A stretch of 64,000 nt of DNA from a bacterium (GTDB lineage Bacteria; Actinomycetota; Acidimicrobiia; Spongiisociales; Spongiisociaceae): positions 36,446 through 100,445 of the forward strand of contig JAPPGU010000008.1 in the NCBI GenBank assembly GCA_028821265.1, given 5' to 3'. Position 1 is the stretch's first letter. Each line of letters opens with the position of its first letter. Under the pieces are notes generated by a model, which saw only the letters and a list, made by a program, of their open reading frames with translations, had not been told where the DNA came from and made no database searches. Positions 3,956 through 59,051 of this stretch are shown in pieces. Position numbers and translations under genes: made by a program.

Positions 3956-4364
3956 CTAAGCCGCGGGGCCCGTCTCGGGTTTGGTGGGTAGCCGGAGGAT
4001 GTAGACGATCAGGCCGACCCCGAACAGCCCCAGAAGCAGCCGCATCATCGGGCTGTCGAGCGCGAACCCCAGCGTGATGGCAAAGGACAGGATGATGGCG
4101 ATCACCGCGACGGCCTTGAGGCGGACGGTGAATCCTTGGCCGGATCTCCAGTCCCTGATGATCGGCCCGAACACCCGATGCTCGACCACCCATCGATCGA
4201 AGCGGGCAGACGACTTCGAGAACAGGAAGGCTGCCAGGAGGACCGGACCGGTGGTGGGGATCAGGGGAACCCAGATGCCCACGATGCCGATCGCGGCGAA
4301 AAGGAGACCCAGCCCCAGGAGGACCGACCTCAGAACCCGGTTCTGCACTAGTCCCGTCGGCATG
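3956..4364 (-). CDS. YbaN/DUF454 family inner-membrane protein
   Basis: MPTGLVQNRVLRSVLLGLGLLFAAIGIVGIWVPLIPTTGPVLLAAFLFSKSSARFDRWVVEHRVFGPIIRDW… matches the DUF454 pattern. Start chosen at the internal Met (4364). Confidence 0.65.
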
Positions 4365-8426: not shown

Positions 8427-10114
8427 CGCATCATCAACTCGGGCGCAGCCGGGCTCGCGCTCTCAGGGGCCGGCGGGAGGGTGTCGGGCATGGGCTTCAT
8501 CTGACATCCCTCCACGAAGATCTCGAAGAAGTCGGGCGTGGTCTCCAGCTCGAGATGGGTCACCCGCTTGGCCAGTTCCTCCGCCCGGGGGCGTCTGGTC
8601 CTGTCCAGAAGCAGGGCGCGCGCTCCCTCGATGGACGCGTTCCCCACCTTGACCACCCGCTCCTCGGGCACGGGCGCGATGAGGCCGATCTCGATGGCGT
8701 TACGGACGTCCAGGTAGTTGGCGAACCCTCCCGCCAGGTAGAGGCGGTCGATGCCGGATGGAGTGACCCCGGCGGTACGCATCACGATGAACTGGCCGCA
8801 GTAGTTGGCGGCCTTGGCCTGGGCGAGGTTGCCGATGTCACGCCTCGAGAAGGTGATGCCCCGATCGGGCACCAGGTCGATGGCGCCCAGCTTGCGATCG
8901 CTGGTGAACACGCCCAGCGGCGTCATGAGTTCGAGGCGGCGAAGCTCGGCCAGCAGGTCGGTGAGGCCGGAGCCGCAGATCCCGGACGCCGGAGCGTCGC
9001 CGATGGTCCTGTAGGAGCCGGCCGATCCGTCGCGGTCGAGCCGGATCGACTCGATGGCCCCGTCGTACGCCCTCATGCCGTAGGTGACCAGCCCCCCCTC
9101 GAAGGCCGGCCCCGCCGGGCAGGAGGCCGCGTAGAGACGGCCCTGATGGTGGAGCACCACCTCGGTGTTGGTGCCGATGTCCACCAGCATCTCGGTCTCC
9201 CCGGTCCGGCCCAGCCGGACGGTCTCGAGGCAGGCCACCGCATCGGCGCCCACATGGCTGGCGATCAGTGGCAGGCCGTAGACCCGGGCACGCCGGTTGG
9301 CGCGCAGGCCCAGGTCGCGGCTCAGAGCCAGCAGGGCGGTGTGGGGGCGCCGACCGTCCAGGTACTCGTGCTCGATGAGCGACTTGTAGGGCTTCTGGCC
9401 GATGCTCTGGACATCGATGCCGAACAGGATGTCGCGCATGGTGGAGTTGGCCGCCACCACGATCTCGTAGACATGGGGAGGGCGCTTGCCGAGGTGGCCG
9501 ACCATCTCGCGGACACCCTGGCCGATGGCCGCCACGGCGGCGTTTCGCAGCTCGCCGGCCACGCCCCGCCCGGCCTCGTAGGAGATGCGGTTCATGACGT
9601 CGCTGCCGCCGAACTGCTGCGGATTCTCGAAGCTGGTGACGGCGACGGTCTCGCCCGACTCGAGGTCGACCAGCTCCAGGACCACGGTCGTGGTTCCCAG
9701 GTCGACCGCCACACCGAGGATGGCCCCGCGGTAGGTGTCGATCACCTCGCCCGCATACCTGACCTGGTCGCCGGTCCTGATCACCATCGGGTCGAGCCGT
9801 TCGTCCGGATCCGGGCGCCGGCGGCCGGATTCCAGGATCCTCGGACGGCGGCGGAGCGGCTCGAAGCTGATCGGGCGCGCGTCGCTCACGATCCTGGCCT
9901 GGCAAGCCAGCCTGAAGCTGCCCCGGAGGAAGCTCTCCGGCTCGGTGCGCGGCGCCAGTGACTCCATGCCCCCGGTTATCTCCACCACGCACTCGTGGCA
10001 CCGGCCGGTACGCAGGCAGGAGGTGGGAACTTCGACCGACAACTCATCGGCGTAGTCGAAGATGGTCCGGCCGATCCGCAGCTTCCTGGTCGTGCCCAGG
10101 TGGGAAACGGTCAC
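8423..10114 (-). CDS. Corrinoid reductive activase (RACE/RamA-like ASKHA ATPase with N-terminal plant-type [2Fe-2S] ferredoxin domain)
   Basis: N-terminus VTVSHLGTTRKLRIGRTIFDYADELSVEVPTSCLRTGRCHECVV…LACQA carries a CX5CX2C…C 2Fe-2S motif. Followed by a large ASKHA/DUF4445-type ATPase body. GTG start at 10114; the ORF extension to 10558 looks like non-coding read-through. Confidence 0.75.
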   Translation of the reverse strand: MTVSHLGTTRKLRIGRTIFDYADELSVEVPTSCLRTGRCHECVVEITGGMESLAPRTEPESFLRGSFRLACQARIVSDARPISFEPLRRRPRILESGRRRPDPDERLDPMVIRTGDQVRYAGEVIDTYRGAILGVAVDLGTTTVVLELVDLESGETVAVTSFENPQQFGGSDVMNRISYEAGRGVAGELRNAAVAAIGQGVREMVGHLGKRPPHVYEIVVAANSTMRDILFGIDVQSIGQKPYKSLIEHEYLDGRRPHTALLALSRDLGLRANRRARVYGLPLIASHVGADAVACLETVRLGRTGETEMLVDIGTNTEVVLHHQGRLYAASCPAGPAFEGGLVTYGMRAYDGAIESIRLDRDGSAGSYRTIGDAPASGICGSGLTDLLAELRRLELMTPLGVFTSDRKLGAIDLVPDRGITFSRRDIGNLAQAKAANYCGQFIVMRTAGVTPSGIDRLYLAGGFANYLDVRNAIEIGLIAPVPEERVVKVGNASIEGARALLLDRTRRPRAEELAKRVTHLELETTPDFFEIFVEGCQMKPMPDTLPPAPESASPAAPELMMR

Positions 10115-10449
10115 GCCGTTGGCTCTTCTCCGGCTGCCTCCCGCCGGCGGGAGGAGGCCTCCTCCTTGATGGCGGATATCTTCGCGCTGGCCCTCTGCCG
10201 GGAGCGGGGATGGCTCTCCCATGCGGTGCGGTAGTCGAAGGTCCCGTCGTGGCCGCAGGTCAGCAGATCGGCTTCGGGGTCCGCCGCTATCTGGTTGCGA
10301 CACCTGAACAACGCCGTGCAAAGGTCGTGGCGGTCCCGGTAGGGGCAGCGGGTGCGGGATGACACCTCGGCATGGCCGACGATATCGGTGAAGAGGCGGC
10401 CGATCCGGTCGAGCCGTTCCTGGAAGGCCTGCTGGTCTTGGTCCGCCAT
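10111..10449 (-). CDS. Hypothetical small Cys-rich protein (112 aa) embedded in the corrinoid methyltransferase operon
   Basis: Fits exactly between the corrinoid protein stop (10470) and the RACE start (10114). High GC3. Five Cys (RCPYRDRHDLCTALFRCRNQ…LTCGHDG). No family recognised. Confidence 0.4.
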   Translation of the reverse strand: MADQDQQAFQERLDRIGRLFTDIVGHAEVSSRTRCPYRDRHDLCTALFRCRNQIAADPEADLLTCGHDGTFDYRTAWESHPRSRQRASAKISAIKEEASSRRREAAGEEPTA

Positions 10450-10469
10450 GGCGTGGCTCGGGTGAAGGT

Positions 10470-11222
10470 TCAGCGGCGGACTTCGAGCGCCAACTGCTTG
10501 GCCAGCGCCACGCAGGCCAAGGCGTCCTTGCCGTAGCCGTCCGACCCCACCTCTTCACCGAACTCCGGAGTCACCGGAGCTCCACCCACCATGAACCGCA
10601 CCTGCTCCCGGAGGCCGGCGTCCTTGAAGGCCTCCACCGTCCTGGCCATGTTAGGCATGGTGGTGGTGAGGAGGGCCGACATACCGATCAGGCGGGCCTC
10701 GCTGTCCTTGACAGCGGCGAGGAACTCGTCCGGCGAGGTGTTGACGCCGAGGTCGATCACCGTGAACCCGCCGCCGCGGAGCATCATGATGCAGAGGTTC
10801 TTGCCGATGTCGTGCAAGTCGCCCTGGACGGTCCCCATGATGACGGTACCGATCGGTTCCACTCCTGACGCGGCCAGGATCGGCTCGATATGGGCCATAC
10901 CGGCCTTCATGGCCCGGGCCGACACCAGTACCTCGGGGACGAAGACGTAGCCCTCCCGGAACTTGATGCCCACGATGCCCATGCCGGCGATCAGGCCGTC
11001 GTCCATGATCTCCAAGGCATGCACGCCGTCCGCGAGGGCCGCGACGGTGAGCCGGTCCACGGTCTCGTTGTCCCCCTCGATGAGGGCGGCGGCGATGTCC
11101 TGCATGGCCGGAGAGGCGCGGCTGAACAACTCCACGTTGCGTTCGATCTCTTCGGGCCGTTCGAGGAACTCCTCGATCTCGGCCCGTATCGTCTCGTTCG
11201 CTATACCGGATAGCTGAACCAT
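10470..11222 (-). CDS. Corrinoid (B12-binding) protein, MtmC/MtbC/OdmA-like
   Basis: N-terminal B12-binding-2 helical cap plus Rossmann B12-binding domain with DxHxxG motif (QGDLHDIGKN) and …GMSALLTTTMP…. Confidence 0.85.
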   Translation of the reverse strand: MVQLSGIANETIRAEIEEFLERPEEIERNVELFSRASPAMQDIAAALIEGDNETVDRLTVAALADGVHALEIMDDGLIAGMGIVGIKFREGYVFVPEVLVSARAMKAGMAHIEPILAASGVEPIGTVIMGTVQGDLHDIGKNLCIMMLRGGGFTVIDLGVNTSPDEFLAAVKDSEARLIGMSALLTTTMPNMARTVEAFKDAGLREQVRFMVGGAPVTPEFGEEVGSDGYGKDALACVALAKQLALEVRR

Positions 11223-11351
11223 TGGAATCGGTCAATCCTGCTTAATCGGTTGGAAGCGGTTTCTGGGAGACCCTTACGAACTCGGAAAGGCTACCCCGAT
11301 CAGGTCGGGCAGGCAAAGGTGGCGCGGACCGGCGATCTCCCGTCGGCCGGG

Positions 11352-12449
11352 CTAGCCGTCACCACCGGCCTCCGGCGGATCGTGGACCACGAACCGGCCA
11401 TCCGGGCGGTGCGCGTTGGAATAGTCCCGGGCGGAGTCGGCCAGCGCCGCCAGGACCTCCATCTTCGTCCCGAGCGGTACCGAGCCCTCGGGCGCCACTC
11501 CCTGCACCCCGGCGTTGAGCACGGTCATGCAGGCCTCGTAGCAGTCCTCGTAGTTGCCGCTGAACAGGATGGTCGGGTTGTTGATGTTCCCGAACAGCGA
11601 CATGCGGTCACCGGCGATCTCCTTCGCCTTGACCGGATCGACCTGGGACTCGAAGTGGAAGCAGTCCCAGCCCGCCTCGGCGAAGTAGTCGATGCGATCG
11701 GTGGTCTCGCCACAGCAGTGGAGGATGCTGGGACCGCCCACCTCGGCCTGGATCTGCTGATGCATCTCGAGGAGGAAGTCACGGTACATGTCGGGGCTGA
11801 CCAGTTCCCGGTTGGCGTGATCGCACCACATGATGGCGTCGGCCCCGGCTTCGAGCTGGGCATGGGCGGACATCATCGACGCCGGCAGCAGGACCTCCAG
11901 GTAACGGCGGATCTTGTCGGGGTCGAGGATGGTGTCCATCAGGAAGTTCTCGATACCGACCATATGGAAGCCCACCGACCAGGCTCCGTAGACCTTGCCG
12001 ACGATGCCCACGTCCGGGTAGCGCTTCCTGAGCAGGCGGATGGCGCCGAGGGCCGCCTTGAACGAGCGGCGCTCCAGGTAGTCGGAGGGGACCTTGAAGT
12101 CCTCGGGGTCGGTCAGGACGTGATCGTCGACCGCCGGCCAGTTGTCCTTGGTGCCCCACCAGGTCGAGGCGTCGAGGGCGTCGGCCTCGAGTTGGGAGTG
12201 GAAGACGGGCATCACCGTGTCGAGTCCCAGGTTCTCGTGGGCGGTGGCCGCCAGGCGGGCCATCTTCTCGGCGTCCAGATGGGCCTCCGGAAACTCGGCG
12301 TCGGCGATCTCCATAGCCTCGAGGGTGATCACCGAACTCAGGGTCATGGCCGGGACCTTGTCGACCCGGCCCCCGTACAGGGCCGACAGGAAACGCCGGC
12401 GGGGGGTCATCCATTCGCCGCTGAGTCGGGGGTACTGCTGTTCGGTCAT
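11352..12449 (-). CDS. Uroporphyrinogen-decarboxylase-family methyltransferase (substrate:corrinoid methyltransferase, MT-I; MtaA/CmuA/OdmB-like)
   Basis: 365-aa URO-D fold (…ILHCCGETTDRIDYFAEAGWDCFHFESQVD…) typical of corrinoid-dependent MT-I enzymes. First gene of the minus-strand operon. Confidence 0.75.
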   Translation of the reverse strand: MTEQQYPRLSGEWMTPRRRFLSALYGGRVDKVPAMTLSSVITLEAMEIADAEFPEAHLDAEKMARLAATAHENLGLDTVMPVFHSQLEADALDASTWWGTKDNWPAVDDHVLTDPEDFKVPSDYLERRSFKAALGAIRLLRKRYPDVGIVGKVYGAWSVGFHMVGIENFLMDTILDPDKIRRYLEVLLPASMMSAHAQLEAGADAIMWCDHANRELVSPDMYRDFLLEMHQQIQAEVGGPSILHCCGETTDRIDYFAEAGWDCFHFESQVDPVKAKEIAGDRMSLFGNINNPTILFSGNYEDCYEACMTVLNAGVQGVAPEGSVPLGTKMEVLAALADSARDYSNAHRPDGRFVVHDPPEAGGDG

Positions 12450-12647
12450 GCTTGCCTCTTTGCCTTGCTCTGGTGGAGTCCTGCCCGGTAAGTCGGATGC
12501 GTCGAAGATAGTAGTTGCCTCCTGCGTAGCCAGGCGCCACGAGCGAGGGCTGGGGCGGTGACGGGACCGGACCGTTCTCAGCGGTGGCTTGCCCGTGTCC
12601 GGCTAGGGACAGCGCGGGGATAGACTCGGCGACCAGGGAGGTTTGAC

Positions 12648-13886
12648 GTGAGCAAAGAGAGAGAGCACGCCAAACGCGACGGCTCATGGGAGGAAGGCTC
12701 CACCGGGTTCGCGGAGCTGGGCGACCTGTTGCGGTCCGGCTTCAGTGACGGCCGCGACGGAGGGTCGGCGGCCGGTGCCGAACTCCGCTCGGCCTGGAGC
12801 GGCTTCGTGGATGCCGCCCGCGACCTGGGCCAGGCGCTGGCGGCGACCGCCAACGACCCCGAGGTCCGGGCGGCTATGAAGAGCGCCATGCAGACCGTGG
12901 TCGAGACGGTCGGGACCGCTGCTCGGGACGTCGCCGACACCGCCGCCGAACGCGTGAGGCAAACCGCAGAGAGACGCAAAGGGGAGGCCGGAGACGCGGA
13001 GGGTGGCACCGAGGGTCCGGCCCGGCCCCTTGTCACGTGTAGCTGGCTGGCCGACCATCTGGACGACCCCGGCGTGCGGATCGTGGATACCCGGTGGTTC
13101 CTGGGACAGCCCGGCGCCGGAAAGCTCCGGTACGAGGAGGATCACGTCCCCGGCGCCGTGTTCCTGGACCTCGACGATGACCTGGCGGCCTCCGAGGGTC
13201 CCGGCCGCCACCCTCTCCTATCCCCGGACGACCTGGCCGACCTGCTGGGCCGCCACGGGATCGGCAACGAGCACCACGTGGTGGTCTACGACCAAGGGCC
13301 CGGGGCCATAGCCGCCCGCCTCTGGTGGATGCTCCGCAGCGTCGGTCACGAACGCGTGAGCGTGCTCGACGGCGGGTACGGTCGCTGGTCTAGCCAGGAC
13401 CACCCGCTCACCACGGACCCGCCCGACGTCGTTCCCACTACCTACGAGACCGAGGAAGGCTCCACGCTCACCGTCGATCGCGACCAGCTGCTCGACCGCC
13501 TGGGAACCGCGCAGGTGATAGATGCCCGGGAACCGGAGCGCTACCGGGGCGAGACGGAGCCGATCGACAGCGTGGCCGGTCACATCCCTACCGCCCTATC
13601 GGCTCCCACCGCCGGAAACGTCGGCCCGGACGGCACCTTCAAGCCGGCTCACGTGCTGGCGGCCCGGTTCTTCGAGATGGGCCTGGAGAAGGATGAGCCG
13701 GTGATCAGCTACTGCGGAAGCGGGGTCACCGCCTGCCACAACCTCCTGGCCCTCCACATCGCCGGTTACCCGGAAGGCATCCTGTACCCCGGATCCTGGT
13801 CCGACTGGTCCGCCAGCGGGATGCCGGTAGCAGTGGGCCCCGACCCCGGCCCACCGCCGGAGCACCACCCAGGCGACGTCGCCTGA
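12648..13886 (+). CDS. Rhodanese-domain sulfurtransferase (thiosulfate/3-mercaptopyruvate sulfurtransferase-like) with ~125-aa N-terminal low-complexity extension
   Basis: Tandem rhodanese domains with active-site CGSGVTA. The upstream 125 aa (Ala/Glu/Arg-rich, high GC3) are in frame with no stop. Confidence 0.7.
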   Translation: MSKEREHAKRDGSWEEGSTGFAELGDLLRSGFSDGRDGGSAAGAELRSAWSGFVDAARDLGQALAATANDPEVRAAMKSAMQTVVETVGTAARDVADTAAERVRQTAERRKGEAGDAEGGTEGPARPLVTCSWLADHLDDPGVRIVDTRWFLGQPGAGKLRYEEDHVPGAVFLDLDDDLAASEGPGRHPLLSPDDLADLLGRHGIGNEHHVVVYDQGPGAIAARLWWMLRSVGHERVSVLDGGYGRWSSQDHPLTTDPPDVVPTTYETEEGSTLTVDRDQLLDRLGTAQVIDAREPERYRGETEPIDSVAGHIPTALSAPTAGNVGPDGTFKPAHVLAARFFEMGLEKDEPVISYCGSGVTACHNLLALHIAGYPEGILYPGSWSDWSASGMPVAVGPDPGPPPEHHPGDVA

Positions 13887-13952
13887 CGACTCACTTGCTG
13901 CCGGAGGCGGGGCGCGACCGCAGGTAGCAGCTATCGTGCGACGATCCGACCC

Positions 13953-14891
13953 TTGAACACATTCCGGTCATGGGTGGCCTCCCGCACGAGCCGCCCGAAG
14001 CGGATCAGACGGGTTGTCATACCGGTGGTGATCCTCGCGCTGATCTATGCGGCCGTGTCCTTCTACATCGCTGACAGCGCGCTCGACGCCGAAGCGAACC
14101 CACTCGACGAACACCCTCAGGACTTCGCCCTGCACTACGAGGAGGTCGAGTTCACCCCGCGCGGTTGGCCCACGACCGTCCTTCGAGGGTGGTGGTTACC
14201 GGCCCCTGACGCCCGCGCGACGGTGATCCGCGTGCATGGCATCGACAGCAACCGCAGCTCCATGCTGGCCATGGCCCCTACTCTGATCGAGAGCGGCTAC
14301 TCGGTGCTCGCCTTCGACCTGCGGGGCCACGGCGAGTCCGATCAGGCCCAGATGGGCGCCGGAGTCCACGAGCAAGACGACCTGCTGGGCGCGGTCGACT
14401 ACCTGGTCCGCGAACGCGGGGCGGAGGCCGGAGCGATCTTCCTGCATGGCAATTCCTACGGCGCGGCGATCGCCCTGATGTCAGGATGGCGCGAACCCGC
14501 CGTCGCCGGGGTCTTCGCCGACTCGTCCTTCGCCTCGCTGTCCGATCTGGTAGTCCAGGAGGTAGCGCGGCGCACCTCCGCGCCCTCCTGGCTGGCTTCC
14601 GTCCTGCGGCCGGGTGTGATCCTGATGGCTCGCCTCTCCAAGGGCATCGACATCGAGGGGGTGTACCCGGCGGGCGACGCCGCCAGATACTCCTACGCCA
14701 TCGGTCTTGCCCACTGCGAAATGGATGACCGCATCCCGATCAGCCACCTGGAACGCATCCGGACCGGGCTCCGGCACACGCCACGACTCACCGTCTACGA
14801 AGGCTGCGCCCACGGCGACGCCTGGGACGACTACCCAGGTCGCTACGAGGCAGCCCTTATCGCCTATCTCGACGAGCGGCTGGGACTCTGA
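13953..14891 (+). CDS. Alpha/beta hydrolase with N-terminal membrane anchor
   Basis: N-terminal TM; HGIDSNRS…LRGHGESD…LHGNSYGAAIA (GxSxG nucleophile elbow). Confidence 0.7.
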   Translation: MNTFRSWVASRTSRPKRIRRVVIPVVILALIYAAVSFYIADSALDAEANPLDEHPQDFALHYEEVEFTPRGWPTTVLRGWWLPAPDARATVIRVHGIDSNRSSMLAMAPTLIESGYSVLAFDLRGHGESDQAQMGAGVHEQDDLLGAVDYLVRERGAEAGAIFLHGNSYGAAIALMSGWREPAVAGVFADSSFASLSDLVVQEVARRTSAPSWLASVLRPGVILMARLSKGIDIEGVYPAGDAARYSYAIGLAHCEMDDRIPISHLERIRTGLRHTPRLTVYEGCAHGDAWDDYPGRYEAALIAYLDERLGL

Positions 14892-15020
14892 TCGGGCGAG
14901 CTCCCGAGGTGGATCGCGGTCACCGATTCCAAGGCTCGCTTTGACGGTCGCGTGTGCACGTCGGGCGGTACTGTCGAACCGACGTCTGCGAGCCGGACTC
15001 GGCATGTGAAGGAGCTGACC

Positions 15021-15980
15021 ATGGTGGACTTCGATGATCGTCTCGATGAAGCGCACAAGGCCGTTCTCGAGATGATTCCGGATGCCCTCCTGGATCTCAC
15101 GGACATACCCAAGGCGCGGCAAGCGCTCGACGGCTTCATCGCCGCCAGGGTCGCACAGGCTCCTGTGTTTCCCGGCGTTGAGGTCGGGGACCACTGGGCT
15201 CCTGGGGCGGACGGGGACCCGGATGTGATGGTTCGGGTCTACACACCGTCAGGTCTGGACGCTGGTGCACCGGCTCTCTACTGGATCCATGGCGGCGGAA
15301 TGGTGATGGGAAGTGTCACCAGGAACGACATCGAATGCAAGGGTTGGGCCACCGACATGCGGTGCGTGGTGGCGTCCGTGGAGTACCGCCTCGCCCCCGA
15401 GAATCCGCATCCCGCGCCGATCGAGGACTGCTTCGCCGGGCTGGCGTGGTTGGTGTCCAACGCGGAGAGCCTCGGAGTCGACGCCGATCGGATAGCGGTG
15501 GGTGGCGCCTCCGCAGGGGGTGGACTGGCGGCTGCCCTGGCCCTGGTTGCGAGGGATCGGGGTGTTGACATCATCTTCCAGCAGTTGATCTGCCCCATGC
15601 TGGACGACCGCAACATCACCCGTTCCAGTCATTGGGTCCAGCATCCCAAGGTATGGAACCGGGCGGCGAACATCGCCGGCTGGAGCGCCCTGCTGGGCAA
15701 GCCGGCCGGTTCCGATGACGTCTCTCCCTACGCTTCCCCCGCCCGAGCCGAGGACCTGTCCGGGCTGGCGCCGGCCTTCATCATCATCGGGGACCTGGAC
15801 CTGTTCGTGGACGAGTCCATCGAGTACGCCCAGCGGCTGGCCGCGGCCGGCGTGCCGACCGAGCTGCACGTACTCCCAGGGGCAGTCCACGGCACGCAGT
15901 TCTACCTCCCGACGGCGGAAATAAGCATGCGTTGGAAGGCCCTCGAGGCGGACGCACTGCGTGTGGCCCTCCACGGGTAG
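15021..15980 (+). CDS. Alpha/beta-hydrolase fold-3 esterase/lipase (HSL family)
   Basis: HGGG oxyanion motif (LYWIHGGGMVMGS) and GGASAGG nucleophile. Start ATG 15021 preceded by GAAGGAG RBS. Confidence 0.8.
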   Translation: MVDFDDRLDEAHKAVLEMIPDALLDLTDIPKARQALDGFIAARVAQAPVFPGVEVGDHWAPGADGDPDVMVRVYTPSGLDAGAPALYWIHGGGMVMGSVTRNDIECKGWATDMRCVVASVEYRLAPENPHPAPIEDCFAGLAWLVSNAESLGVDADRIAVGGASAGGGLAAALALVARDRGVDIIFQQLICPMLDDRNITRSSHWVQHPKVWNRAANIAGWSALLGKPAGSDDVSPYASPARAEDLSGLAPAFIIIGDLDLFVDESIEYAQRLAAAGVPTELHVLPGAVHGTQFYLPTAEISMRWKALEADALRVALHG

Positions 15981-22790: not shown

Positions 22791-23047
22791 CCCAGAACGC
22801 GAAAATCGCGGGCGCCCGCCTCCGGCCCAGGGCCCTCCCCCGCCACCACCTGTCCTGCCTGGAGCGTGGTCGGCCATGCCCGGCCGGCTGCCGGGCGATC
22901 GGCCTTCGCTCCTCGAAGCTCGTCTGACCCCTTGGCCGGCAAACCGATCGGTCGGTAGCTGTTCACCGGCGTAGGTGACTAGCGTCAAGCAAGGTATACC
23001 GGGGTTGTGACAGATCCGGGCCATCCCGGGGAGAACGCGAGAAATCG
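22791..23047 (+). repeat. Copy A of a ~230-bp intergenic repeat family bounded by GAACGCGAAAAT-like direct repeats
   Basis: Shares conserved core with 25500-25707 and 32392-32600: …GGGCCCTCCCCCGCCACCACCTGTCCTG..GGAGCGTGGTCG.C.ATGCCCGGCCGG..GCCGGG…CCGATCGGT…TGTGAC. Begins CAGAACGCGAAAATCG and ends GAGAACGCGAGAAATCG. Confidence 0.6.
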
Positions 23048-25499: not shown

Positions 25500-25707
25500 C
25501 TCGCGAAAGACGGGTGCTCCGCACCGGGCCCTCCCCCGCCACCACCTGTCCTGTTCGGAGCGTGGTCGCCCATGCCCGGCCGGTGGCCGGGAGGTGGACC
25601 TTCGCTCCATGAGCTGTCATGTTCCCTCGGGCCGGCCGTTCCGATCGGTCTGTCTCATCGGCCGGTATTGGTGCTTGGCGATAGGCACCATATATCAGGG
25701 CTGTGAC
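25500..25707 (+). repeat. Copy B of the ~230-bp intergenic repeat family
   Basis: ~80% identity to copies A and C over the core; ends CTGTGAC. Causes the spurious N-terminal extension of ORF 25594. Confidence 0.6.
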
Positions 25708-25887
25708 ATTTTCTGCCCGTCAACCCATGGAGGAGGCCCGTTCGGCTCCTGCCGGGAGGATCGCCCGGTTGTCACCGGGCTGGGTCGTTTGGCCGGGCAG
25801 GGGAATATGCTGGGTCCTCGTATGGGTACGGGTCGCTTGGTTAGGAACGCACCGGCATGGTTGCCGGCACTTCGCACGAGCCGCGTC

Positions 25888-31950: not shown

Positions 31951-32160
31951 CTACGTTCGCTTATCCAGAAAGCCTACCCGTACTTCATCGTGAAATCCTT
32001 AGCCTCACTCGATGCCGCATGAGGACCGGCATGCGGACGGGAAAGCCCGGTGGTCCGAGTTGGAGTCGCCACCGGACCGGCGGTCACGCCTGAGGGCGAC
32101 CACCGGAAGCGACCCGTGGCCGCTAGCGCTCGGCCACCTCCAGAGTCCTACTAGAACTGG

Positions 32161-32186
32161 GTAACAAGTCGGATCACCTCCTTTCT
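32161..32186 (+). other. 16S rRNA 3'-terminus-like fragment (…GTAACAAG..GGATCACCTCCTTTCT) in an 835-bp intergenic region
   Basis: Exact 16-nt match to the conserved bacterial 16S rRNA 3' end, including the anti-Shine-Dalgarno CCTCC. Preceded by GTAACAAG, as in the 16S helix-44/45 junction. No further rRNA body detected. Confidence 0.4.
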
Positions 32187-32391
32187 CTGGTACGCGCCAA
32201 TATAGCGGCCCGTTGTGCATGAGAGGTGCATGACGTGCCCGGCGATCGCCGGCGGGACCTTCCCGAGGACCCGGCCCGCAGGCGACGACCGGCCACCATC
32301 AGGCTCACAACGTCACACACGGTGCCGTGAACCTGAGGCTCAGAGCGTCATATATGACGCCCTCTGCCTCAAGAACCGCCTAGCGCCGCAA

Positions 32392-32634
32392 GTCGCGAAA
32401 ATCCGTGCCCCGCACCGGGCCCTCCCCCACCACCACCTGTCCTGTTGGAGCGTGGTCGGCGATGCCCGGCCGGCTGCCGGGTGTCGGCTGTTCGCTCCAT
32501 CGAGCTGTCATGTTCCCTCGGACCGGCCGCTCCGATCGGTACTCACATCATCGGCCGGTGTAGGTGCTTGGCGGTAGGCAACGTATATCAGGGGTGTGAC
32601 GCGTTTAACCCCTTTTCTTCAGAACGCGAAAAAT
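32392..32634 (+). repeat. Copy C of the ~230-bp intergenic repeat family (core 32392-32600 plus 3' GAACGCGAAAAAT direct repeat)
   Basis: Aligned with copies A and B; begins GTCGCGAAAATCC, ends GTGTGAC, then CAGAACGCGAAAAAT 20 nt further on. Confidence 0.6.
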
Positions 32635-32722: not shown

Positions 32723-33328
32723 TTAGAGGGCGTCCGACAGGGCGCGCCAGAGGTCGGTCACGGCGGACCCCAAGCCTCCCAGCGCCCAGCGCAGGACCAG
32801 GGCCACGACGGCGATCCCGGCCGCGGCGAAGATCATCCGGAGCCGGTAGGTCATCGTCTCCTCGCTGTCCTCCAGGTAGGAGGGATTGGCGACCGGCGCC
32901 CGCGCCATGGCGCGCCGTCGCCCGAGGGATTGCCTGGCTCTCGAGATCAGTTTCGACCCGGGCGCCTCCGAGAACTCAAGAGGGGCGCTCTCCGGGTGTG
33001 GGAGATCCGGCGGCTCCTCCAGCTCGACGAACTCGATGTCGTACAGGGTGTCCTCGTCCAGATCGGTGTCCGGCTCGGGCGGCGGCAGCAGCATCCTGTG
33101 CTCGTCGACCCGCCGCAAGGCTTCCTCCAGGAGAGGCATCGGCAGCCTCAGCGCGGCGGACACGTCCACCAACTCGTCGGCGTCAGGTACGGCGGAGCCC
33201 TGTTCCCAGCCGACCACCACTTCGATCGGCCGCCCGGTTCGGGTGGCGATGTCCACCACGGAGACGTCCATCTCTTCACGGCGCTTCGCGAACAGGCGGG
33301 CGAACGCCAGCCCTTCGTCCGGCGACAT
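32723..33328 (-). CDS. HTH (XRE-like) domain membrane protein, RodZ-like architecture
   Basis: Start MSPDEGLAFARLFAKRREEMDVSVVDIATRTGRPIEVVVGWE (HTH), acidic linker, C-terminal TM helix. ATG overlaps the stop of the upstream gene by 1 nt. Confidence 0.5.
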   Translation of the reverse strand: MSPDEGLAFARLFAKRREEMDVSVVDIATRTGRPIEVVVGWEQGSAVPDADELVDVSAALRLPMPLLEEALRRVDEHRMLLPPPEPDTDLDEDTLYDIEFVELEEPPDLPHPESAPLEFSEAPGSKLISRARQSLGRRRAMARAPVANPSYLEDSEETMTYRLRMIFAAAGIAVVALVLRWALGGLGSAVTDLWRALSDAL

Positions 33329-33732
33329 CAGTGGGTCAGTATCTCGGGGAGGCTGTCGGGTTCCGGCCCGGCGGTGACCCGCAGCAGACCGAGGTCCTTG
33401 ACGTTCCAGCACAGGGTCATGCCACCCGGCACCAGGAGCCGCAGGATCGACTCACCGTCGGCGCGGCCGGCGTGAACCTCACCGAGCGCCAGCACCTCGG
33501 TCAGGGGGATCGAGGCGGAATAGGCGCCGTCGGCGCTGAGGGCCGTGACGTGGGTGGCGCCCGTCCGGGGCCGGGCCGCCTCGATCAGCGGGCGCATGGC
33601 CACCACCACGCCCGCCGCGCCCTCCTCCGGAGTTCCCATGTCGTGGAGGGTGTCCAGGTCGTAGCCCCGGGGACGGTCGACCAAGCCGGTCACCCGCAGC
33701 AGCGGTAGCTCGTTGGATGTTCCACCAGACAC
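33328..33732 (-). CDS. Small sulfite-oxidase-fold (Oxidored_molyb-like) domain protein, no obvious Mo-ligating Cys
   Basis: …LLRVTGLVDRPRGYDLDTL…AYSASIPLTEVL…ILRLLVPGGMTLCWNVKDLGLLRV… resembles the Moco-domain core of the YedY/sulfite-oxidase family, but only 134 aa. Confidence 0.4.
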   Translation of the reverse strand: MSGGTSNELPLLRVTGLVDRPRGYDLDTLHDMGTPEEGAAGVVVAMRPLIEAARPRTGATHVTALSADGAYSASIPLTEVLALGEVHAGRADGESILRLLVPGGMTLCWNVKDLGLLRVTAGPEPDSLPEILTH

Positions 33733-33787
33733 GGTCCAACGGTAGCGTTAACGGGATGCCAAGCCGCGCCTTGGACCCCGCAGGTCA

Positions 33788-33882
33788 TGGCGGAGGCGGA
33801 CGGGAATCGAACCCGCCGGGGCACTCTCGTACCCCCACTGGTTTTGAAGACCAGGGAGCCCACCAGGCGCTCGTTCGCCTCC
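33788..33882 (-). tRNA. selC: tRNA-Sec (selenocysteine tRNA), anticodon UCA
   Basis: Minus-strand sequence GGAGGCGAACGAGCGCCTGGTGGGCTCCCTGGTCTTCAAAACCAGTGGGGGTACGAGAGTGCCCCGGCGGGTTCGATTCCCGTCCGCCTCCGCCA. 95 nt; anticodon loop CU-UCA-AA; long variable arm (GGGGG…CCCC). T-arm GCGGG-TTCGATT-CCCGT, then an 8-nt acceptor 3' strand, G73 and CCA, giving the 8/5 acceptor/T architecture diagnostic of bacterial tRNA-Sec. -10-like TATCCT 7 nt upstream. Confidence 0.8.
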
Positions 33883-33983
33883 ATCCCGGAGGATACTCCG
33901 CGCCGATGTCGTCGGGCCGGCGTGTCCAGGTCTTCTGCGGACGCGGCTACGCTCATGCGACCGGAACACGAGAACACGAGAAC

Positions 33984-34292
33984 ATGGCTGCCGGCAGAAA
34001 CGACAATCACGATTCGAACGGTTACCGGATCATGCCGGGATGGCGGGTCGGTCACCTGATGGAGCAGTCGACCACCCGGTCCGGCCTGCTGGTTCCGCCG
34101 GGGACCGAATCCACCAGCGACGCTCTGGCACTGGTGGACATCCACACGGGCCGCCGGTTCTGGGCGGTGCCGACCGGGGCCTGGCGCTTCCTGTGGCCGG
34201 AGAACAACCGGCTGGCGGTGGCCGTGAGGAACTCCCAGATCATCGCCGAGGAGCAGGACGACCCGCCGACCGGCAAGGACTCCTATCTGTGA
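33984..34292 (+). CDS. Hypothetical small protein (102 aa)
   Basis: High-GC3 ORF MAAGRNDNHDSNGYRIMPGW… No family recognised. Start chosen to avoid overlapping selC. Confidence 0.3.
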   Translation: MAAGRNDNHDSNGYRIMPGWRVGHLMEQSTTRSGLLVPPGTESTSDALALVDIHTGRRFWAVPTGAWRFLWPENNRLAVAVRNSQIIAEEQDDPPTGKDSYL

Positions 34293-34329: not shown

Positions 34330-35637
34330 ATGACATCCGAAGGCCGCCGGGGACGACGCCTCACCGCCACCGTCACCGACCTGGATGTCGCCCGGCAGAA
34401 GGCCTACCTCATCAGCGTCGACTTCGAAGGGGCCGGCATTGGCGACGTCGATCGGTCACTCGAGGAGCTGGTCCTCCTGACGGATACGGCCGGGTCGACC
34501 CCGGTGGCGACCGCACGGGTCCGGCGCCGCTCACCGCATGCCGCCACGCTGATCGGTCCCGGCCAGGCCGAAGACCTGGCCCGGGACGCCCAGGCCCTGG
34601 ACGTGGACGTGGTGGTGTTCGACAACGACCTGGCACCGGGCCAGCAGCGCAACCTCCAGCAGCTGTTCGAGTGCGACGTGGTCGATCGGGTGGCCGTGAT
34701 CCTGGACATCTTCGCCCAGCACGCCACCAGCCGGGAGGGCATGCTCCAGGTGGAATCGGCGCTCCTCCGCTATCACCTGCCCCGGCTGCGCGGGAAGGGC
34801 ACCGAGCTAAGCCGCCTCGGCGGAGGCATCGGCACGAGAGGGCCCGGCGAGACCAAGCTGGAGACCGACCGCCGCCGGATCCGGCAGCGCATCACCCACG
34901 TGGAGAAGCGCCTCAAGGAGGTCCAGAAGGTCCGGGAGGCCCAGCGCAAGACGCGCAGCGGCTCGGCCATCCCCCTGGTGTCGCTGGTCGGATACACCAA
35001 CGCCGGCAAGTCCACGCTGCTCAACGCCCTCACCGGCGCCGGGGTGCTCACCCAGGACCGCCTGTTCTCCACCCTCGACTCGACCACCCGCCGGCTCGAA
35101 CTCTCCAACGGGCGCCAGGTGCTGCTGTCCGACACGGTGGGGTTCGTCCGCAGGCTGCCCCATCAACTGGTCGAGGCCTTCCGCTCCACCCTCGAGGAAA
35201 CGGTCCAGGCCGACCTGCTGCTCCACGTGGTGGACGTCTCCGAACCCGGCGCGCCCGACCAGATCTCGGCGGTGAGGGGGGTCCTCGACTCGATCGGCGC
35301 CGGCCACATCCCCGAACTCCTGGTGCTCAACAAGGCCGACTCCGCCGACCTGACCAGCCTCTCCCCCGTCGAGCAGCTGTATCCGGACGCGGTGCTCGTC
35401 TCGGCTGCGGAGCCCACCGGCCTCGAGGAGCTGGCGGACCGCATCGCCGGCGTGCTGGCCCGAGGCTTCCTGGAGATCGACCTGGTGATCCCCTATACCG
35501 ACGGAGCCGTCCTGGGCGAACTCCGCCGCGAGGCGGAAGTCCTGACCGAGGACCACGGGGCGGAGGGCACCCTGGTCAGCGTCCGGCTGCCTCCCGATCG
35601 GGCCGGACGCTACCGGCGCTTCGCCGCGGTCGGCTGA
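34330..35637 (+). CDS. hflX: GTPase HflX
   Basis: HflX N-terminal domain plus G domain (GYTNAGKSTLLNALTG, DTVGF, NKAD). Confidence 0.85.
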   Translation: MTSEGRRGRRLTATVTDLDVARQKAYLISVDFEGAGIGDVDRSLEELVLLTDTAGSTPVATARVRRRSPHAATLIGPGQAEDLARDAQALDVDVVVFDNDLAPGQQRNLQQLFECDVVDRVAVILDIFAQHATSREGMLQVESALLRYHLPRLRGKGTELSRLGGGIGTRGPGETKLETDRRRIRQRITHVEKRLKEVQKVREAQRKTRSGSAIPLVSLVGYTNAGKSTLLNALTGAGVLTQDRLFSTLDSTTRRLELSNGRQVLLSDTVGFVRRLPHQLVEAFRSTLEETVQADLLLHVVDVSEPGAPDQISAVRGVLDSIGAGHIPELLVLNKADSADLTSLSPVEQLYPDAVLVSAAEPTGLEELADRIAGVLARGFLEIDLVIPYTDGAVLGELRREAEVLTEDHGAEGTLVSVRLPPDRAGRYRRFAAVG

Positions 35638-41876: not shown

Positions 41877-42512
41877 ATGGACATTTCATTCTGGGTGGAC
41901 CCGCTCTGACCGTGGTGCTGGGTGACGGCCCGGTGGGTTGTCGACGAGGTTACGCCGGAGCGGGACGTACGGGTTGAGTGGGAACCCATCAGCCTGATGT
42001 TCAAGAACGATCCGGAACCGGGTTCGGACCGGCACCGGACCACCTCCCGGACCCACGGCATGCTGCGGGTGATGGAGTCGGTGAGGACGGAGTTGGGCAA
42101 CGAGGGCGTGTTCCAGGCCTACTGGGCGTTCGCCACCCGCATCCACCACGACCGGAACCTGTTCGACTTCGATGTCGCCCAGGTGTTGGCGGCCATCGGC
42201 ATCGACTCCGGCCACGCCCGGGCCTTCGGGGACGGCTCGTGGGACGGGGAGATCCGCCGCCGCATGGATACCGGGCTCGCTCTGGTCGGCGATGACGTGG
42301 GCACCCCGATCATCGCCATGGAGGATGCCCGGGGCGACCGGGTGGGGATGTTCGGGCCGGTGATCACCCGGGTACCCGGCCGTGACGACTCCTTGCGGCT
42401 CTGGGACGGTCTGGTGGCGGTCACCACCGTGCCGGGCTTCTGGGAGCTGAAGCGAACCCGCACCGAGGACCCCGAGTTCGGCGAGCGCCCTGCCGGGGCT
42501 ACACCCGTCTAG
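41877..42512 (+). CDS. DsbA/FrnE-like thioredoxin-fold oxidoreductase, candidate selenoprotein (in-frame TGA 41907-41909 replacing the first Cys of the CPWC motif: U-P-W-C)
   Basis: ATG 41877 with GGAGAGGAAG RBS. Reads MDISFWVDPL-[TGA]-PWCWVTARWVVDEV… in frame with downstream ORF 41922-42512. FWxDxxCPWC is the DsbA/FrnE family active-site signature. Confidence 0.7.
41923..41943 (+). promoter_or_regulatory. Candidate bacterial SECIS element: hairpin UGACGGCCC-GGU-GGGUUGUCG
   Basis: Starts 14 nt downstream of the UGA. 8-9 bp stem including G·U pairs; apical loop containing GGU ~23-25 nt from the UGA, matching the spacing and loop-G/U requirement of SelB-binding SECIS elements. Confidence 0.4.
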
Positions 42513-43325: not shown

Positions 43326-43358
43326 ACCCGCCGCCGTCCCGCCCCATACTGCCCGGCA

Positions 43359-43527
43359 GTCACAAACACCACCGGGCTCTTGCTTTTCGACGTCGGAGGG
43401 ACCGGACCAGGGATCAATCGGGAGCGGACCCGTGCGGGGATGGCGGAACGCGCTCGGACCAAAGGAGGTGGTGGCTGGGGGCCGGGCCCGCCGGGTGGGG
43501 TGTTCTTCGGCGATTTTCGCGTTCTCG
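43359..43527 (-). repeat. Degenerate inverted-orientation copy D of the ~230-bp repeat family
   Basis: Reverse complement reads GAGAACGCGAAAATCGCC…CCGGCGGGCCCGGCCCCCAGCCACCACCTCCTTTGGTCCGAGCG…CCGATTGATC…GGTGTTTGTGAC, alignable to copies A-C. Confidence 0.35.
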
Positions 43528-45228: not shown

Positions 45229-46281
45229 TCAAACGGCGAAGATTCGTTTCGGGTTCTCGATGAGCATGTCGTCGATCTGGTCTCGGGTGACACCGGCATC
45301 GAGGAGCTGGGGAACGATCTCGTTGAGGATGTAGGCGTAGCCCTTGCCGCCGTAGGCGACCAGGTGCGTCTTCAGGCACCGGTCCTGGGCGAGCATGATC
45401 TGCCGGCTGTAGCCGTCAGCGCAGAGGCGGGCCAGCGTTTCGACGCGCTCCCGGTCGGAGATCCAGTGGTCGCCGCCGAAGAGGAGGTGGGTGTCGGTCC
45501 ACGATGTGTCTCCGAAGCAGTCGTAGTCGATGGAGACGCCCCGGTCCATCACCGACTCGTGATACTCGTAGTCGGGGCAGCTCCCGTCCATATGGCTCAT
45601 GTAGACCTTGTCGAGGTCGGCGCCCTCCTCCTCCAAGATGTCGATGTAACGGTGAGCCTCCTTCATGAACACCATCGGATGCACGGTGAGCGGAACCCCG
45701 GTGGCCGCCTGGGCCCTACCCCCGGCCCGGAGGACCTTCTCCTCCTGGGGGTGCAGGGGCTCGCACATGCCCAACTCGCCGATGACGCCCGCCCGAATGT
45801 CGGTCCCCTGGATACCCACCTCGATGTCGCTGATCAACATCTCGGCCAACTCTCCCACCGATGCCGTGGCGTGGCCGGAAGGATGGGACGGAGCGATGTA
45901 CCAACCGGTGGAGGCGACGATGTTGACTCCGGTGGCTTCGCTGGCGACCACGAGGTCATCGGGGTGCCAGCCGGGGATCCGGCCGCTGACATCGACGAAG
46001 CTCTGCCCGCCGGCGTCGGCGTACAGCTGCAGCTCCCGGATGGCGACGTCCAGCTCCGTCATCCGCAGGTTGTCCTTCGATACGTACGGGTGGGCGGCGA
46101 CGTCGCCGGCGTTCTCCGGGGTCACCGGGCCCGCTGCCAGAGCCTGGATCTCGGGCGGATCGCTTGTCGAAGGCTCGTGCCAGAACAGATGCGAGGTGTC
46201 GAGCAGCAGGTGCTCGTGGCTCATAGTGACGCCGAGGTCATCCGGTGAGATCTCGCCGAGGACGGTACGGACGTTGGCCAT
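45229..46281 (-). CDS. Phosphotriesterase-family (PTE/PHP, amidohydrolase superfamily) protein
   Basis: …GVTMSHEHLLLD… (HxH metal site) …TGVPLTVHP… full-length 350 aa. Confidence 0.8.
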   Translation of the reverse strand: MANVRTVLGEISPDDLGVTMSHEHLLLDTSHLFWHEPSTSDPPEIQALAAGPVTPENAGDVAAHPYVSKDNLRMTELDVAIRELQLYADAGGQSFVDVSGRIPGWHPDDLVVASEATGVNIVASTGWYIAPSHPSGHATASVGELAEMLISDIEVGIQGTDIRAGVIGELGMCEPLHPQEEKVLRAGGRAQAATGVPLTVHPMVFMKEAHRYIDILEEEGADLDKVYMSHMDGSCPDYEYHESVMDRGVSIDYDCFGDTSWTDTHLLFGGDHWISDRERVETLARLCADGYSRQIMLAQDRCLKTHLVAYGGKGYAYILNEIVPQLLDAGVTRDQIDDMLIENPKRIFAV

Positions 46282-54468: not shown

Positions 54469-54740
54469 TCAGACGGCGAAGATCCGCTTCGGGTTCTCCA
54501 CCAGGAGATCGTTCAACTGATCTTCGGTGACCCCGGCCTCGCGCAGCATCGGAACCACCTCGGTCAGAGCGTACACCCATCCCTTGCCGCCGTGCTCGGC
54601 GAAGTGCGCCTCGAGACAGTGGTCGTGCGCAATCATGACCTGCTTGCTGTAGCCGTCTGCGCCCAACCGGGCGAGCGTTTCTACCCGCTCCTGGTCCGAG
54701 ACCCGGTGGTCTCGTCCGAAGATGAGGTGCGACTCGTTCC
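54469..54740 (-). pseudogene. Truncated phosphotriesterase-family gene (C-terminal ~90 aa only)
   Basis: …FGRDHRVSDQERVETLARLGADGYSKQVMIAHDHCLEAHFAEHGGKGWVYALTEVVPMLREAGVTEDQLNDLLVENPKRIFAV is ~60% identical to the C-terminus of the intact PTE-like gene at 45229-46281. No N-terminal 260 aa. Second MITE copy lies 110 bp upstream. Confidence 0.6.
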
Positions 54741-54849
54741 ACCTCGGCGACTACCTGGATCTTCTCGACCAGCTCCGCCCCGTAGTGAACGTCGCCACCC
54801 CGGTGCCCAACGGCAACCTCCGGATCGCTTCAGTCGTTGATGGCCCTGT

Positions 54850-58377: not shown

Positions 58378-58767
58378 TCAGATCGACGCAACTAGTCGCC
58401 GAAGGCCCGCTGCTAACCGATCGACATCGTCCGAGCCTGAGGCCGTGGCCACCAAGAATTCGTAGACATCGTCGTTCGGGATCGCTGTCACGGCGACACC
58501 GTTTATCTCCAGGAACGTGGCGGTGGCCAGCCAACCGAGGCGTTTGTTCCCATCCACCAGCGGATGTCCCTTCACGATCGACTGCAGAAGGGCCCCGGCC
58601 TTTGTCCAGAGGTCCGGATACGCTTCATCGCCGAATACGGTCGTTTGGGGCCGCGCTACCGCGGCGCCGAGCAGGCCCACCTCACGAACGGGCGGTGGGT
58701 TCCCCAGCAGCATCCCGGCCAGGTACAAGAGGTCCTCGAGGTCGAGATAGACGACCGGACGGTTCAT
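58378..58767 (-). CDS. Type II toxin-antitoxin system toxin, death-on-curing (Doc/Fic fold)
   Basis: Fic/Doc motif HPLVDGNKRLGW. ATG overlaps the stop of the upstream antitoxin (ATGA). Confidence 0.8.
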   Translation of the reverse strand: MNRPVVYLDLEDLLYLAGMLLGNPPPVREVGLLGAAVARPQTTVFGDEAYPDLWTKAGALLQSIVKGHPLVDGNKRLGWLATATFLEINGVAVTAIPNDDVYEFLVATASGSDDVDRLAAGLRRLVASI

Positions 58768-58967
58768 TCACCCAGGCGTCTGAGCGCGTCGGCGTGGGCC
58801 TCCATCACGCGCCGGGCAGCGGCGGACACCCGTTCTCGATGCTGTCCCCTCAGGACGTAGTCCCTGACAGCCCGCCGCGCAGCCTCCTGCATGGAGATCC
58901 CCTCAGTCGCGGCGCGTTCCTGCAGCGCCCTGTGCTCGTCTTCGGTCAGGCGAAGGGTCATGGCCAT
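58764..58967 (-). CDS. Ribbon-helix-helix (CopG-like) antitoxin partner of Doc
   Basis: 67-aa MAMTLRLTEDEHRALQERAATEGISMQEAARRAVRDYV… RHH beta-strand/helix pattern. The rest of ORF 58764-59900 is antisense shadow of the + strand gene. Confidence 0.55.
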   Translation of the reverse strand: MAMTLRLTEDEHRALQERAATEGISMQEAARRAVRDYVLRGQHRERVSAAARRVMEAHADALRRLGE

Positions 58968-59051
58968 CGCATGATGATACCAGATTGATACCACATTGGC
59001 CTCCTCGCTCTGCCGACGGGCCAGGCCGCCATCGGTACACTCCATCGGCTG

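Follow-up and report, generated by a model that had tools for sequence, protein, structure and literature searches.

A selenocysteine tRNA gene with a mismatched eighth acceptor pair, and its plausible UGA-containing client, in an uncultured sponge-associated bacterium

We find that an uncultured, sponge-associated bacterium of the class Acidimicrobiia (Spongiisociaceae or a close relative) very probably carries a functional selC, the gene for the selenocysteine (Sec) tRNA. The gene lies at positions 33788-33882, minus strand, of a 64-kb stretch of contig JAPPGU010000008.1, and this whole stretch is called the window below. An original prediction, made from the letters of the window alone, had described a 95-nt tRNA-Sec with anticodon UCA on this strand, and it is confirmed by an ARAGORN call, by a match to the Rfam tRNA-Sec family and by covariation among relatives. 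About 8 kb away is a gene for a thiol reductase with an in-frame TGA codon at its active site. The selC gene plausibly serves this UGA-containing gene, which would give it at least one client, with the nucleophilic active-site cysteine (Cys) replaced by Sec. The tRNA identity, fold, covariation and conservation, the conserved in-frame TGA and the co-occurrence of the two genes were all observed directly. We also find that the eighth acceptor pair of the tRNA is mismatched, as it is in most of the relatives that we collected, and that an alternative pairing is available that keeps the acceptor/T helix at its full length.

Identity and conservation of the tRNA-Sec gene

The minus-strand sequence of 33788-33882 is GGAGGCGAACGAGCGCCUGGUGGGCUCCCUGGUCUUCAAAACCAGUGGGGGUACGAGAGUGCCCCGGCGGGUUCGAUUCCCGUCCGCCUCCGCCA (95 nt). 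Its parts, and the fold of minimum free energy (MFE) where it defines them, are as follows.

33788-33882, minus strand: selC, tRNA-Sec including the encoded CCA (ARAGORN, RF01852, fold z = -3.4, covariation in 47 relatives)
33876-33882, minus strand: 5' strand of the acceptor stem, nt 1-7 (GGAGGCG), forming seven Watson-Crick pairs with nt 85-91 in the MFE fold
33875, minus strand: A8, the nominal eighth acceptor nucleotide, in an A·C mismatch opposite C84 (33799), marked non-canonical in the Rfam alignment
33856-33872, minus strand: D arm, with a 6-bp stem (G11-C27 to C17-G22), a bulged G15 and the 4-nt loop UGGU
33838-33854, minus strand: anticodon arm, with a 5-bp stem and the 7-nt loop CUUCAAA (loop at 33843-33849)
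33845-33847, minus strand: anticodon UCA (reads UGA), flanked in the loop by U on its 5' side and A on its 3' side
33818-33835, minus strand: long variable arm, 7 bp and the 4-nt loop GAGA in the MFE fold
33799-33817, minus strand: T arm, with G66-C84, G67·U83, C68-G82, GGG/CCC and the loop UUCGAUU (6 bp with G66-C84, otherwise 5)
33788-33798, minus strand: 3' strand of the acceptor stem, nt 85-91 (CGCCUCC), with the discriminator G at 33791 and CCA at 33788-33790

The T arm reads GCGGG-UUCGAUU-CCCGU, and the eight-nucleotide 3' strand reads CCGCCUCC and is followed by the discriminator G and the encoded CCA. The CUUCAAA loop, long variable arm, T arm, discriminator and CCA that the original prediction had pointed out are thus all in place.

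ARAGORN found a single tRNA in the window, tRNA-SeC(tca) at 33792-33880 on the minus strand. RF01852 (tRNA-Sec) was the only Rfam family above threshold in a scan of the whole window (33792-33882, minus strand), with 77 bits against a gathering score of 47 (E = 4.5e-14) and a match that spanned model positions 1-91 of 91. A permissive Rfam rescan of 31.8-34.4 kb had the same outcome, with tRNA-Sec at the top of the tRNA clan at this site. The MFE cloverleaf has an energy of -52.1 kcal/mol, compared with -39.6 +/- 3.6 kcal/mol in dinucleotide shuffles (z = -3.4), and not one of 200 shuffles folded as well as the tRNA-Sec strand. Every sequence-level criterion for tRNA-Sec that we tested gave a positive result, and selC at 33788-33882 is a genuine but ordinary gene.

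Relatives were collected with a one-genome-per-species scan for the anticodon arm and the T-arm core, which returned at least 119 loci, and 117 tRNA-Sec genes were extracted. Because the search pattern fixed these two elements, the sample is biased, which weighs against our reading of the gene, and the anticodon and T stems are uninformative for covariation. A perfect 7-bp acceptor stem and a discriminator G are present in all 117 listed relatives, and CCA is encoded in 67 of them. Across the 47 distinct relatives, 95.6% of cloverleaf cells are paired. Their covariation score of 0.395, compared with 0.110 for shuffles, was attained by none of 500 shuffles. When the pairing partners were slid by 1-3 columns, the score fell to 0.05-0.10. 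Compensatory changes occur in four of the six D-stem pairs and in all seven variable-arm pairs. The bulged G15 of the D stem is a feature of the Acidimicrobiia group.

Closer to the window, the tRNA sequence is 100% identical in 15 related public loci (compared over 92 nt for L005, L021, L032, L069, L085, L090 and L115, and over 95 nt for L128-L135), while the identity of the flanks ranges from ~74 to 99.6%. The most similar flanking DNA (99.64% identity over 20.3 kb) is on a metagenome scaffold in the European Nucleotide Archive (ERZ23495471 ROBB21-1_SAMN13943213 scaffold_136). Other scaffolds and metagenome-assembled genomes (MAGs) with flanks 87-98% identical are labeled Acidimicrobiia, Candidatus (Ca.) Spongiisocius or Candidatus Spongiisociaceae. 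A literature search for Ca. Spongiisocius and Spongiisociaceae returned no paper on the organism and only a mention in nomenclature. Several actinomycete genomes and MAGs in our sample have two separate tRNA-Sec loci each, among them Microtetraspora sp. NBRC 13810, Nonomuraea sp. NPDC005650 and three MAGs (locus pairs L011 and L065; L103 and L118; L040 and L057; L068 and L084; L063 and L099).

Could the gene encode a different long-arm tRNA, such as a tRNA-Ser derivative, an allo-tRNA whose acceptor/T domain is 12 bp long, a tRNA-Cys that resembles tRNA-Sec or a UGA suppressor that needs no SelB? The long variable arm and G73 are as in tRNA-Ser, and the eighth acceptor pair is mismatched, both of which speak for such a reading. 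The original prediction had itself named assignment to tRNA-Ser or another type II tRNA by a covariance model as the outcome that would count against it. Rfam clan competition nonetheless retains tRNA-Sec at 77 bits and ARAGORN calls SeC. Furthermore, the acceptor/T domain has 13 layers and not 12, and the 6-bp D stem with its 4-nt loop is a tRNA-Sec signature that covaries. As to tRNA-Cys, its identity would call for a discriminator U, and this gene has G there, along with a UCA anticodon. We therefore consider any of these other tRNAs extremely improbable, and tRNA-Sec remains the assignment that we use below.

Pairing at the acceptor/T junction

The acceptor/T helix has 13 layers, made either of 7 + 6 standard pairs (the MFE fold) or of 8 + 5 pairs that include one A·C layer. 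The original prediction had claimed a 13-bp helix divided in the canonical 8/5 way. Its helix length is right, as the MFE fold has 7 + 6 pairs, but the 8/5 division is not supported as it was stated. It had also named an A8·C mismatch beforehand as a ground for rejecting an 8-bp acceptor stem. That mismatch is present, and with it the standard eighth pair is lost, whereas the tRNA-Sec identity stands.

In the canonical 8/5 fold, the eighth acceptor position is occupied here by A8·C84 in place of a standard pair. G66 pairs with C84 in both the MFE and the centroid fold, and the result is a 7-bp acceptor stem and a 6-bp T stem. The evaluated energies were -52.1 kcal/mol for the 7/6 fold, -49.7 kcal/mol with position 84 left open (7/5) and -45.5 kcal/mol for a 9/4 fold, which makes the G66-C84 pair worth 2.4 kcal/mol over an open position. 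The 9/4 reading, in which A9 pairs with U83, needs A9 in the sequence and is 6.6 kcal/mol worse, and we rejected it. Among the 117 listed relatives, positions 8 and 84 are U·C in 68, A·C in 43, C-G in three and A-U in one. Pair 8:84 is thus non-standard in 113 of the 117 (43 of the 47 distinct sequences), and G66 occurs together with C84 in 110. Nearly all of these sequences can therefore adopt the 7/6 fold, which is also favored thermodynamically in them.

We infer that the tRNA-Sec folds as 7/6 with G66-C84 as an extra pair, a modeled choice that we hold with slightly better than even confidence. Precedent for it exists, because a layout with a 7-bp acceptor and a 6-bp T stem was proposed for all mycobacterial tRNA-Sec in July 2026 (RNA Biol, PMC13449736). 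The 7/6 variant has thus been published for a different lineage of actinobacteria, and the authors of that study draw it in this way.

The principal rival is a functional tRNA-Sec in the canonical 8/5 register, with A8·C84 tolerated as a non-Watson-Crick eighth layer and G66 as an unpaired linker. Several observations weigh for it and against the 7/6 fold. Pair 8:84 is the only one at the acceptor/T junction that covaries (pair 8:89 in the 47-sequence test), and the sixth T-stem pair has no covariation, because G66 and C84 are nearly invariant. Four listed relatives have G84, three of them with C8, and in those lineages the 8:84 pair is favored; listed relatives with G or U at position 84 have C8 (three) or A8 (one), which makes a standard 8:84 pair. 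The Rfam model also pairs A8 with C84 and, despite one non-canonical mark, still gives 77 bits. In addition, the E. coli tRNA-Sec folds as 8/5, with G opposite G at the equivalents of positions 66 and 84. Set against these points are the rarity of a standard 8:84 pair among the relatives, the energy gained by G66-C84 in a fold that is both MFE and centroid, and the published mycobacterial drawing. We regard the 8/5 register as a real but less probable possibility. Note that either division leaves a coaxial acceptor/T helix of 13 layers, and it is this length that counts for tRNA-Sec.

With these data, Acidimicrobiia and a number of further actinobacterial groups join the lineages in which tRNA-Sec lacks a standard eighth acceptor pair and is able to fold as 7/6. 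It is possible, although we would put it at just under an even chance, that tRNA-Sec is normally 7/6 throughout Actinomycetota (Acidimicrobiia, Streptosporangiales, Brevibacterium, Brachybacterium and Trebonia) and in some sponge-associated Gammaproteobacteria (Ca. Rariloculus), rather than a mycobacterial peculiarity. If so, RNase P, SelA and SelB in these organisms would read an acceptor/T junction that is placed differently than in E. coli. Within our biased sample, the occurrence of a mismatch or a 7/6 fold across many Actinomycetota and in Ca. Rariloculus Gammaproteobacteria is modestly new. Five loci from sponge-associated Gammaproteobacteria (L017, L024, L035, L075 and L117; Ca. Rariloculus and relatives) share the anticodon arm, the T arm and the A8·C84 mismatch of the Acidimicrobiia sponge symbionts.

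A UGA-containing reductase gene and the Sec pathway

The gene that selC plausibly serves, its TGA codon and a hairpin just past this codon are located as follows.

41877-42512, plus strand: putative selenoprotein gene, an Rv2466c-like/DsbA-like thiol reductase (PF22234, Rv2466c structures)
41907-41909, plus strand: in-frame TGA, the putative Sec codon, at the first Cys of CPWC
41924-41942, plus strand: candidate selenocysteine insertion sequence (SECIS) hairpin, GACGGCCC-GGU-GGGUUGUC, 8 bp, -12.3 kcal/mol

The frame at 41877-42512 reads MDISFWVDPL-TGA-PWCWVTARWVV, giving UPWC where homologues have CPWC. Profile and structure matches were made with Cys substituted for the stop codon. The protein matches PF22234 (Rv2466c-like) with E = 3.9e-38 and 131.9 bits; the match to the generic DSBA family PF01323 is weaker, at 32 bits. 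It also matches the Mycobacterium tuberculosis Rv2466c structures (PDB 4ZIL, 4NXI and 5XUR) with E = 1e-35 to 1e-37, and the TGA is aligned on the first Cys of CPWC. The nearest homologues (~63-93% identity) are predictions of 171-202 aa that cover 76-93% of the query, and the nine of them that we read all begin with 'MTARWVV', directly after the TGA. Cys forms (57-64% identity), on the other hand, are full length with FWVDPxCPWCW, and have TGC or TGT at the site of the TGA.

We read ten orthologous DNAs (L120, L121, L123, L124 and L128-L133), and the TGA falls at the same codon in every one. Upstream of it, each has a start codon and FW[VI]DP[LVI], and many of the changes in these upstream codons are synonymous. 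Such conservation fits a translated UGA, and not a real stop or a pseudogene. Moreover, the tRNA-Sec and the TGA gene occur together wherever both could be checked (L128-L133; OZ243930, with L036 and L120; OZ241390, with L054 and L121). The claim that the tRNA decodes a UGA-containing DsbA-like gene at 41.9 kb is therefore borne out by conservation and co-occurrence. A search of the window for further selenoprotein genes (in-frame TGA with coding-type G+C content at third codon positions on both sides) found none. Two other in-frame TGA matches in the window proved to be artifacts, one a gene junction and the other an antisense frame.

These observations call for a correction of annotation. 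In every public data set examined, the Rv2466c-like reductase is called truncated, as a protein of 171-199 aa without its active site, whereas 211 aa and a Sec in UPWC are expected for the complete product. That public data consistently call this reductase of the sponge symbionts too short is modestly new.

The hairpin past the UGA is a plausible SECIS element, a candidate that is not diagnostic. Its apical loop starts 22 nt past the UGA, and a small, G-containing apical loop is of the type described for bacterial SECIS elements. It is kept in all Sec forms, with the loop GGU or AGGUG. The few differences among them are of two kinds: a stem G-C pair becomes G·U, or CGG becomes AGG, in which case the closing C-G pair no longer forms and the loop grows to AGGUG with its GG intact. 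Two results weigh against the hairpin. In four windows around the UGA it was indistinguishable from shuffles (z = -1.3 to +0.4), in a test without power because the DNA is 68% G+C. The Cys homologues L125-L127 likewise form a hairpin across the WVTARWVV codons, and their loops are CGC, GCCC and GCUG. Because Cys forms fold one too, the hairpin by itself is not countable as evidence, and what sets the Sec forms apart is the GGU or AGGUG loop alone. In the Cys-form genes L125, L126 and L127, this hairpin covers the WVT(A/H)RW codons just past the CPxC motif. As speculation, a pre-existing hairpin in Cys forms could have eased a switch from Cys to Sec in the Rv2466c-like family.

Neither SelA, SelB nor SelD is encoded in the 64-kb window, as judged by Pfam scans or direct reading of every substantial open reading frame (ORF). 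The original prediction had stated that no sel genes adjoin selC, and this holds across the whole window. The absence weighs against a working pathway, and it is one of three points that favor regarding selC as a relic, in a bacterium that makes no selenoproteins, in which the TGA is a real stop and the protein starts at the GTG at 41922 without an active site. The other two are that public gene calls start the protein after the TGA and that the SECIS has no statistical support. A relic, however, would hardly account for a tRNA that stays 100% identical while the flanking DNA diverges by as much as ~25% between genomes. Nor would it account for purifying selection, in all ten orthologous DNAs, on the ten codons before the TGA, the start codon and a purine-rich stretch for ribosome binding. 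The codon in question is TGA in every case, never TAA or TAG, and a protein begun past it would be without the first catalytic residue of a motif that aligns with CPWC of Rv2466c. We judge a relic to be very unlikely. We infer instead that selA, selB and selD are located elsewhere in the genome, which would hence hold the full Sec machinery, and this uncultured sponge-associated lineage of Acidimicrobiia very probably uses selenocysteine.

The steps by which the tRNA would be charged, converted and delivered are those of the established bacterial pathway. Seryl-tRNA synthetase would serylate tRNA-Sec by means of the discriminator G73 and the long variable arm. SelA, which recognizes the 6-bp D stem and 4-nt D loop, would then turn Ser into Sec on the tRNA with selenophosphate from SelD. 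SelB·GTP, and not EF-Tu, would bind Sec-tRNA-Sec, whose 13-layer acceptor/T helix it recognizes, together with the hairpin past the UGA. Delivery to the ribosome would make Sec the attacking residue of the UPWC redox center. The understanding of how Sec decoding works is unchanged by these findings.

Genomic surroundings and known systems

Four genes flank the tRNA, two on either side.

33328-33732, minus strand: 134-aa ORF, downstream of the tRNA on the same strand, with a weak, partial molybdopterin-binding oxidoreductase domain
32723-33328, minus strand: 201-aa ORF with a weak helix-turn-helix (HTH; RstR-type, E = 0.007) and a C-terminal hydrophobic helix
33984-34292, plus strand: conserved 102-aa ORF that diverges from the tRNA and immediately precedes hflX
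34330-35637, plus strand: hflX, GTPase HflX (TIGR03156, 448 bits against a cutoff of 217; Pfam GTP-bdg_N/M and MMR_HSR1)

The original prediction had named as neighbors a small molybdenum-cofactor-fold protein, an HTH membrane protein and hflX. The last is secure and the first two correspond to weak signals, while the 102-aa gene was missed. The 134-aa ORF, found beside tRNA-Sec in 14 loci, matches PF00174 with 23.2 bits, below the 24-bit cutoff (E = 5.7e-5). Its stop and the start ATG of the 201-aa ORF overlap by 1 nt, and the same pair is called in L132. The 102-aa gene has three-periodic substitutions, its protein is 100% identical in L021 and L115, and it stands beside hflX in 24 loci. The protein has an exact database entry (P0121) and matches no Pfam or NCBIfam family. 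A scan of 33600-34100 for promoters and terminators found nothing.

Within the family, the gene order is thioredoxin-domain protein, cysteine synthase, two small genes, tRNA-Sec, small gene, hflX, ROK kinase and 6-phosphogluconate dehydrogenase (6PGD). This conserved order points to a stable place in the chromosome, not to an island. The 3' end of the tRNA has no second copy within 25-42 kb, and no integrase was found nearby. With no att-type repeat, no integrase and flanking genes that are syntenic in relatives, we rejected selC as an integration site or part of a genomic island. One strain indel is located exactly at the 3' flank of the tRNA-Sec gene (window 33778-33786), where six close relatives (L021 at 3296-4132; L128, L129, L130 and L134 at 9091-9684; L135 at 6690-7283) have ~840 extra nt with one 197-aa ORF of no known family. 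The window, L131, L132 and L133 are without this insert. Two small strain-specific insertions interrupt the otherwise syntenic region: L129 has a SmaI-like restriction enzyme and an N4/N6 methyltransferase between the 6PGD and mannose-isomerase genes (13926-15661), and L131 and L133 have a low-molecular-weight phosphatase and a MIP channel between the ROK and 6PGD genes (~12500-13770).

Several other features of the window were recorded. An intergenic repeat of ~200 nt has three plus-strand copies (22806-23023, 25505-25719 and 32392-32612) and a weak fourth on the minus strand (43353-43480). The copies are 77-89% identical to one another and occupy the same intergenic positions in L021, L032, L115 and L128-L135. 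Their motifs are CCCTCCCCC(G/A)CCACCACC, a long GGAGCG...CGCTCC hairpin and TGTGAC. The repeat matched no Rfam family in the whole-window scan or in a permissive rescan of 32392-32612, and RNAalifold found almost no covariation in it. Downstream of cysteine synthase, the stretch at 32009-32191 is 72-82% conserved even in distant relatives, and its minus strand has a sub-threshold Rfam match over the full model length to the actinobacterial small RNA Ms_IGR-5 (RF02471; 20 bits against 45, E = 0.08). A corrinoid-dependent methyltransferase cluster (7392-12602, minus strand) comprises a pterin-binding methyltransferase, a RACo-type reductive activase with a 2Fe-2S domain, a B12-binding corrinoid protein and a URO-D-like methyltransferase. 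A 94-aa fragment at 54469-54750 (minus strand) matches the C-terminal end of the phosphotriesterase-family gene at 45229-46281 (minus strand) and is probably a pseudogene remnant of a paralogue. Finally, a Fic/Doc-family toxin gene (129 aa; 58378-58990, minus strand) is preceded by a short ORF in the antitoxin position.

Compared with E. coli selC and the RF01852 model, the window tRNA has the same UCA in a CUUCAAA loop, G73, encoded CCA, length of ~95 nt and long variable arm. It shares with bacterial tRNA-Sec the 6-bp D stem with 4-nt loop and the 13-layer acceptor/T helix. The T stem opens with G·U and then C-G, just as it does in E. coli selC; these pairs were reportedly described by Rudinger et al. 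in 1996 as part of an EF-Tu antideterminant. Unlike E. coli selC, which is 8/5 with C-G as its eighth acceptor pair, the window gene has A·C there, a G66 that can pair with C84 (7/6) and a bulged G in the D stem. It also adjoins the hflX region and not selA or selB, in contrast to the reference.

Mycobacterial tRNA-Sec (PMC13449736), likewise from the phylum Actinomycetota, is similar in its 7 + 6 = 13 bp, ~95 nt, encoded CCA and a 6-bp D stem with some variation; the layout is a predicted one in both cases. The present gene differs in coming from the class Acidimicrobiia and from uncultured sponge symbionts. The clients differ too, as the sole predicted mycobacterial selenoprotein is formate dehydrogenase (PMC13449736), whereas an Rv2466c-like reductase is the candidate here. 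Allo-tRNAs, which were found in tRNA-Sec searches, likewise have a long arm and a non-canonical acceptor/T division. Theirs are 8/4 or 9/3 domains of 12 bp in total with varied anticodons (PMC5389517), unlike the window tRNA with its 13 layers, UCA anticodon and strong tRNA-Sec model score.

The client gene belongs to a known selenoprotein class. DsbA-like UxxC selenoproteins were first reported from the Sargasso Sea (PMC1088965), and a 2026 review lists a 'DsbA-like protein form 1' selenoprotein (PMC13188914). The window protein resembles this family in its thioredoxin fold, in Sec as the first residue of UxxC, in its widespread Cys homologues and in a G-loop hairpin past the UGA. It differs in fitting PF22234 far better than PF01323 (132 against 32 bits). 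To M. tuberculosis Rv2466c it aligns over nearly the full length (E ~1e-36), including FWxDPLCPWCW and the C-terminal ELKRTRTE. It differs from Rv2466c, a mycothiol-dependent nitroreductase according to Pfam, in that the first active-site Cys would here be Sec.

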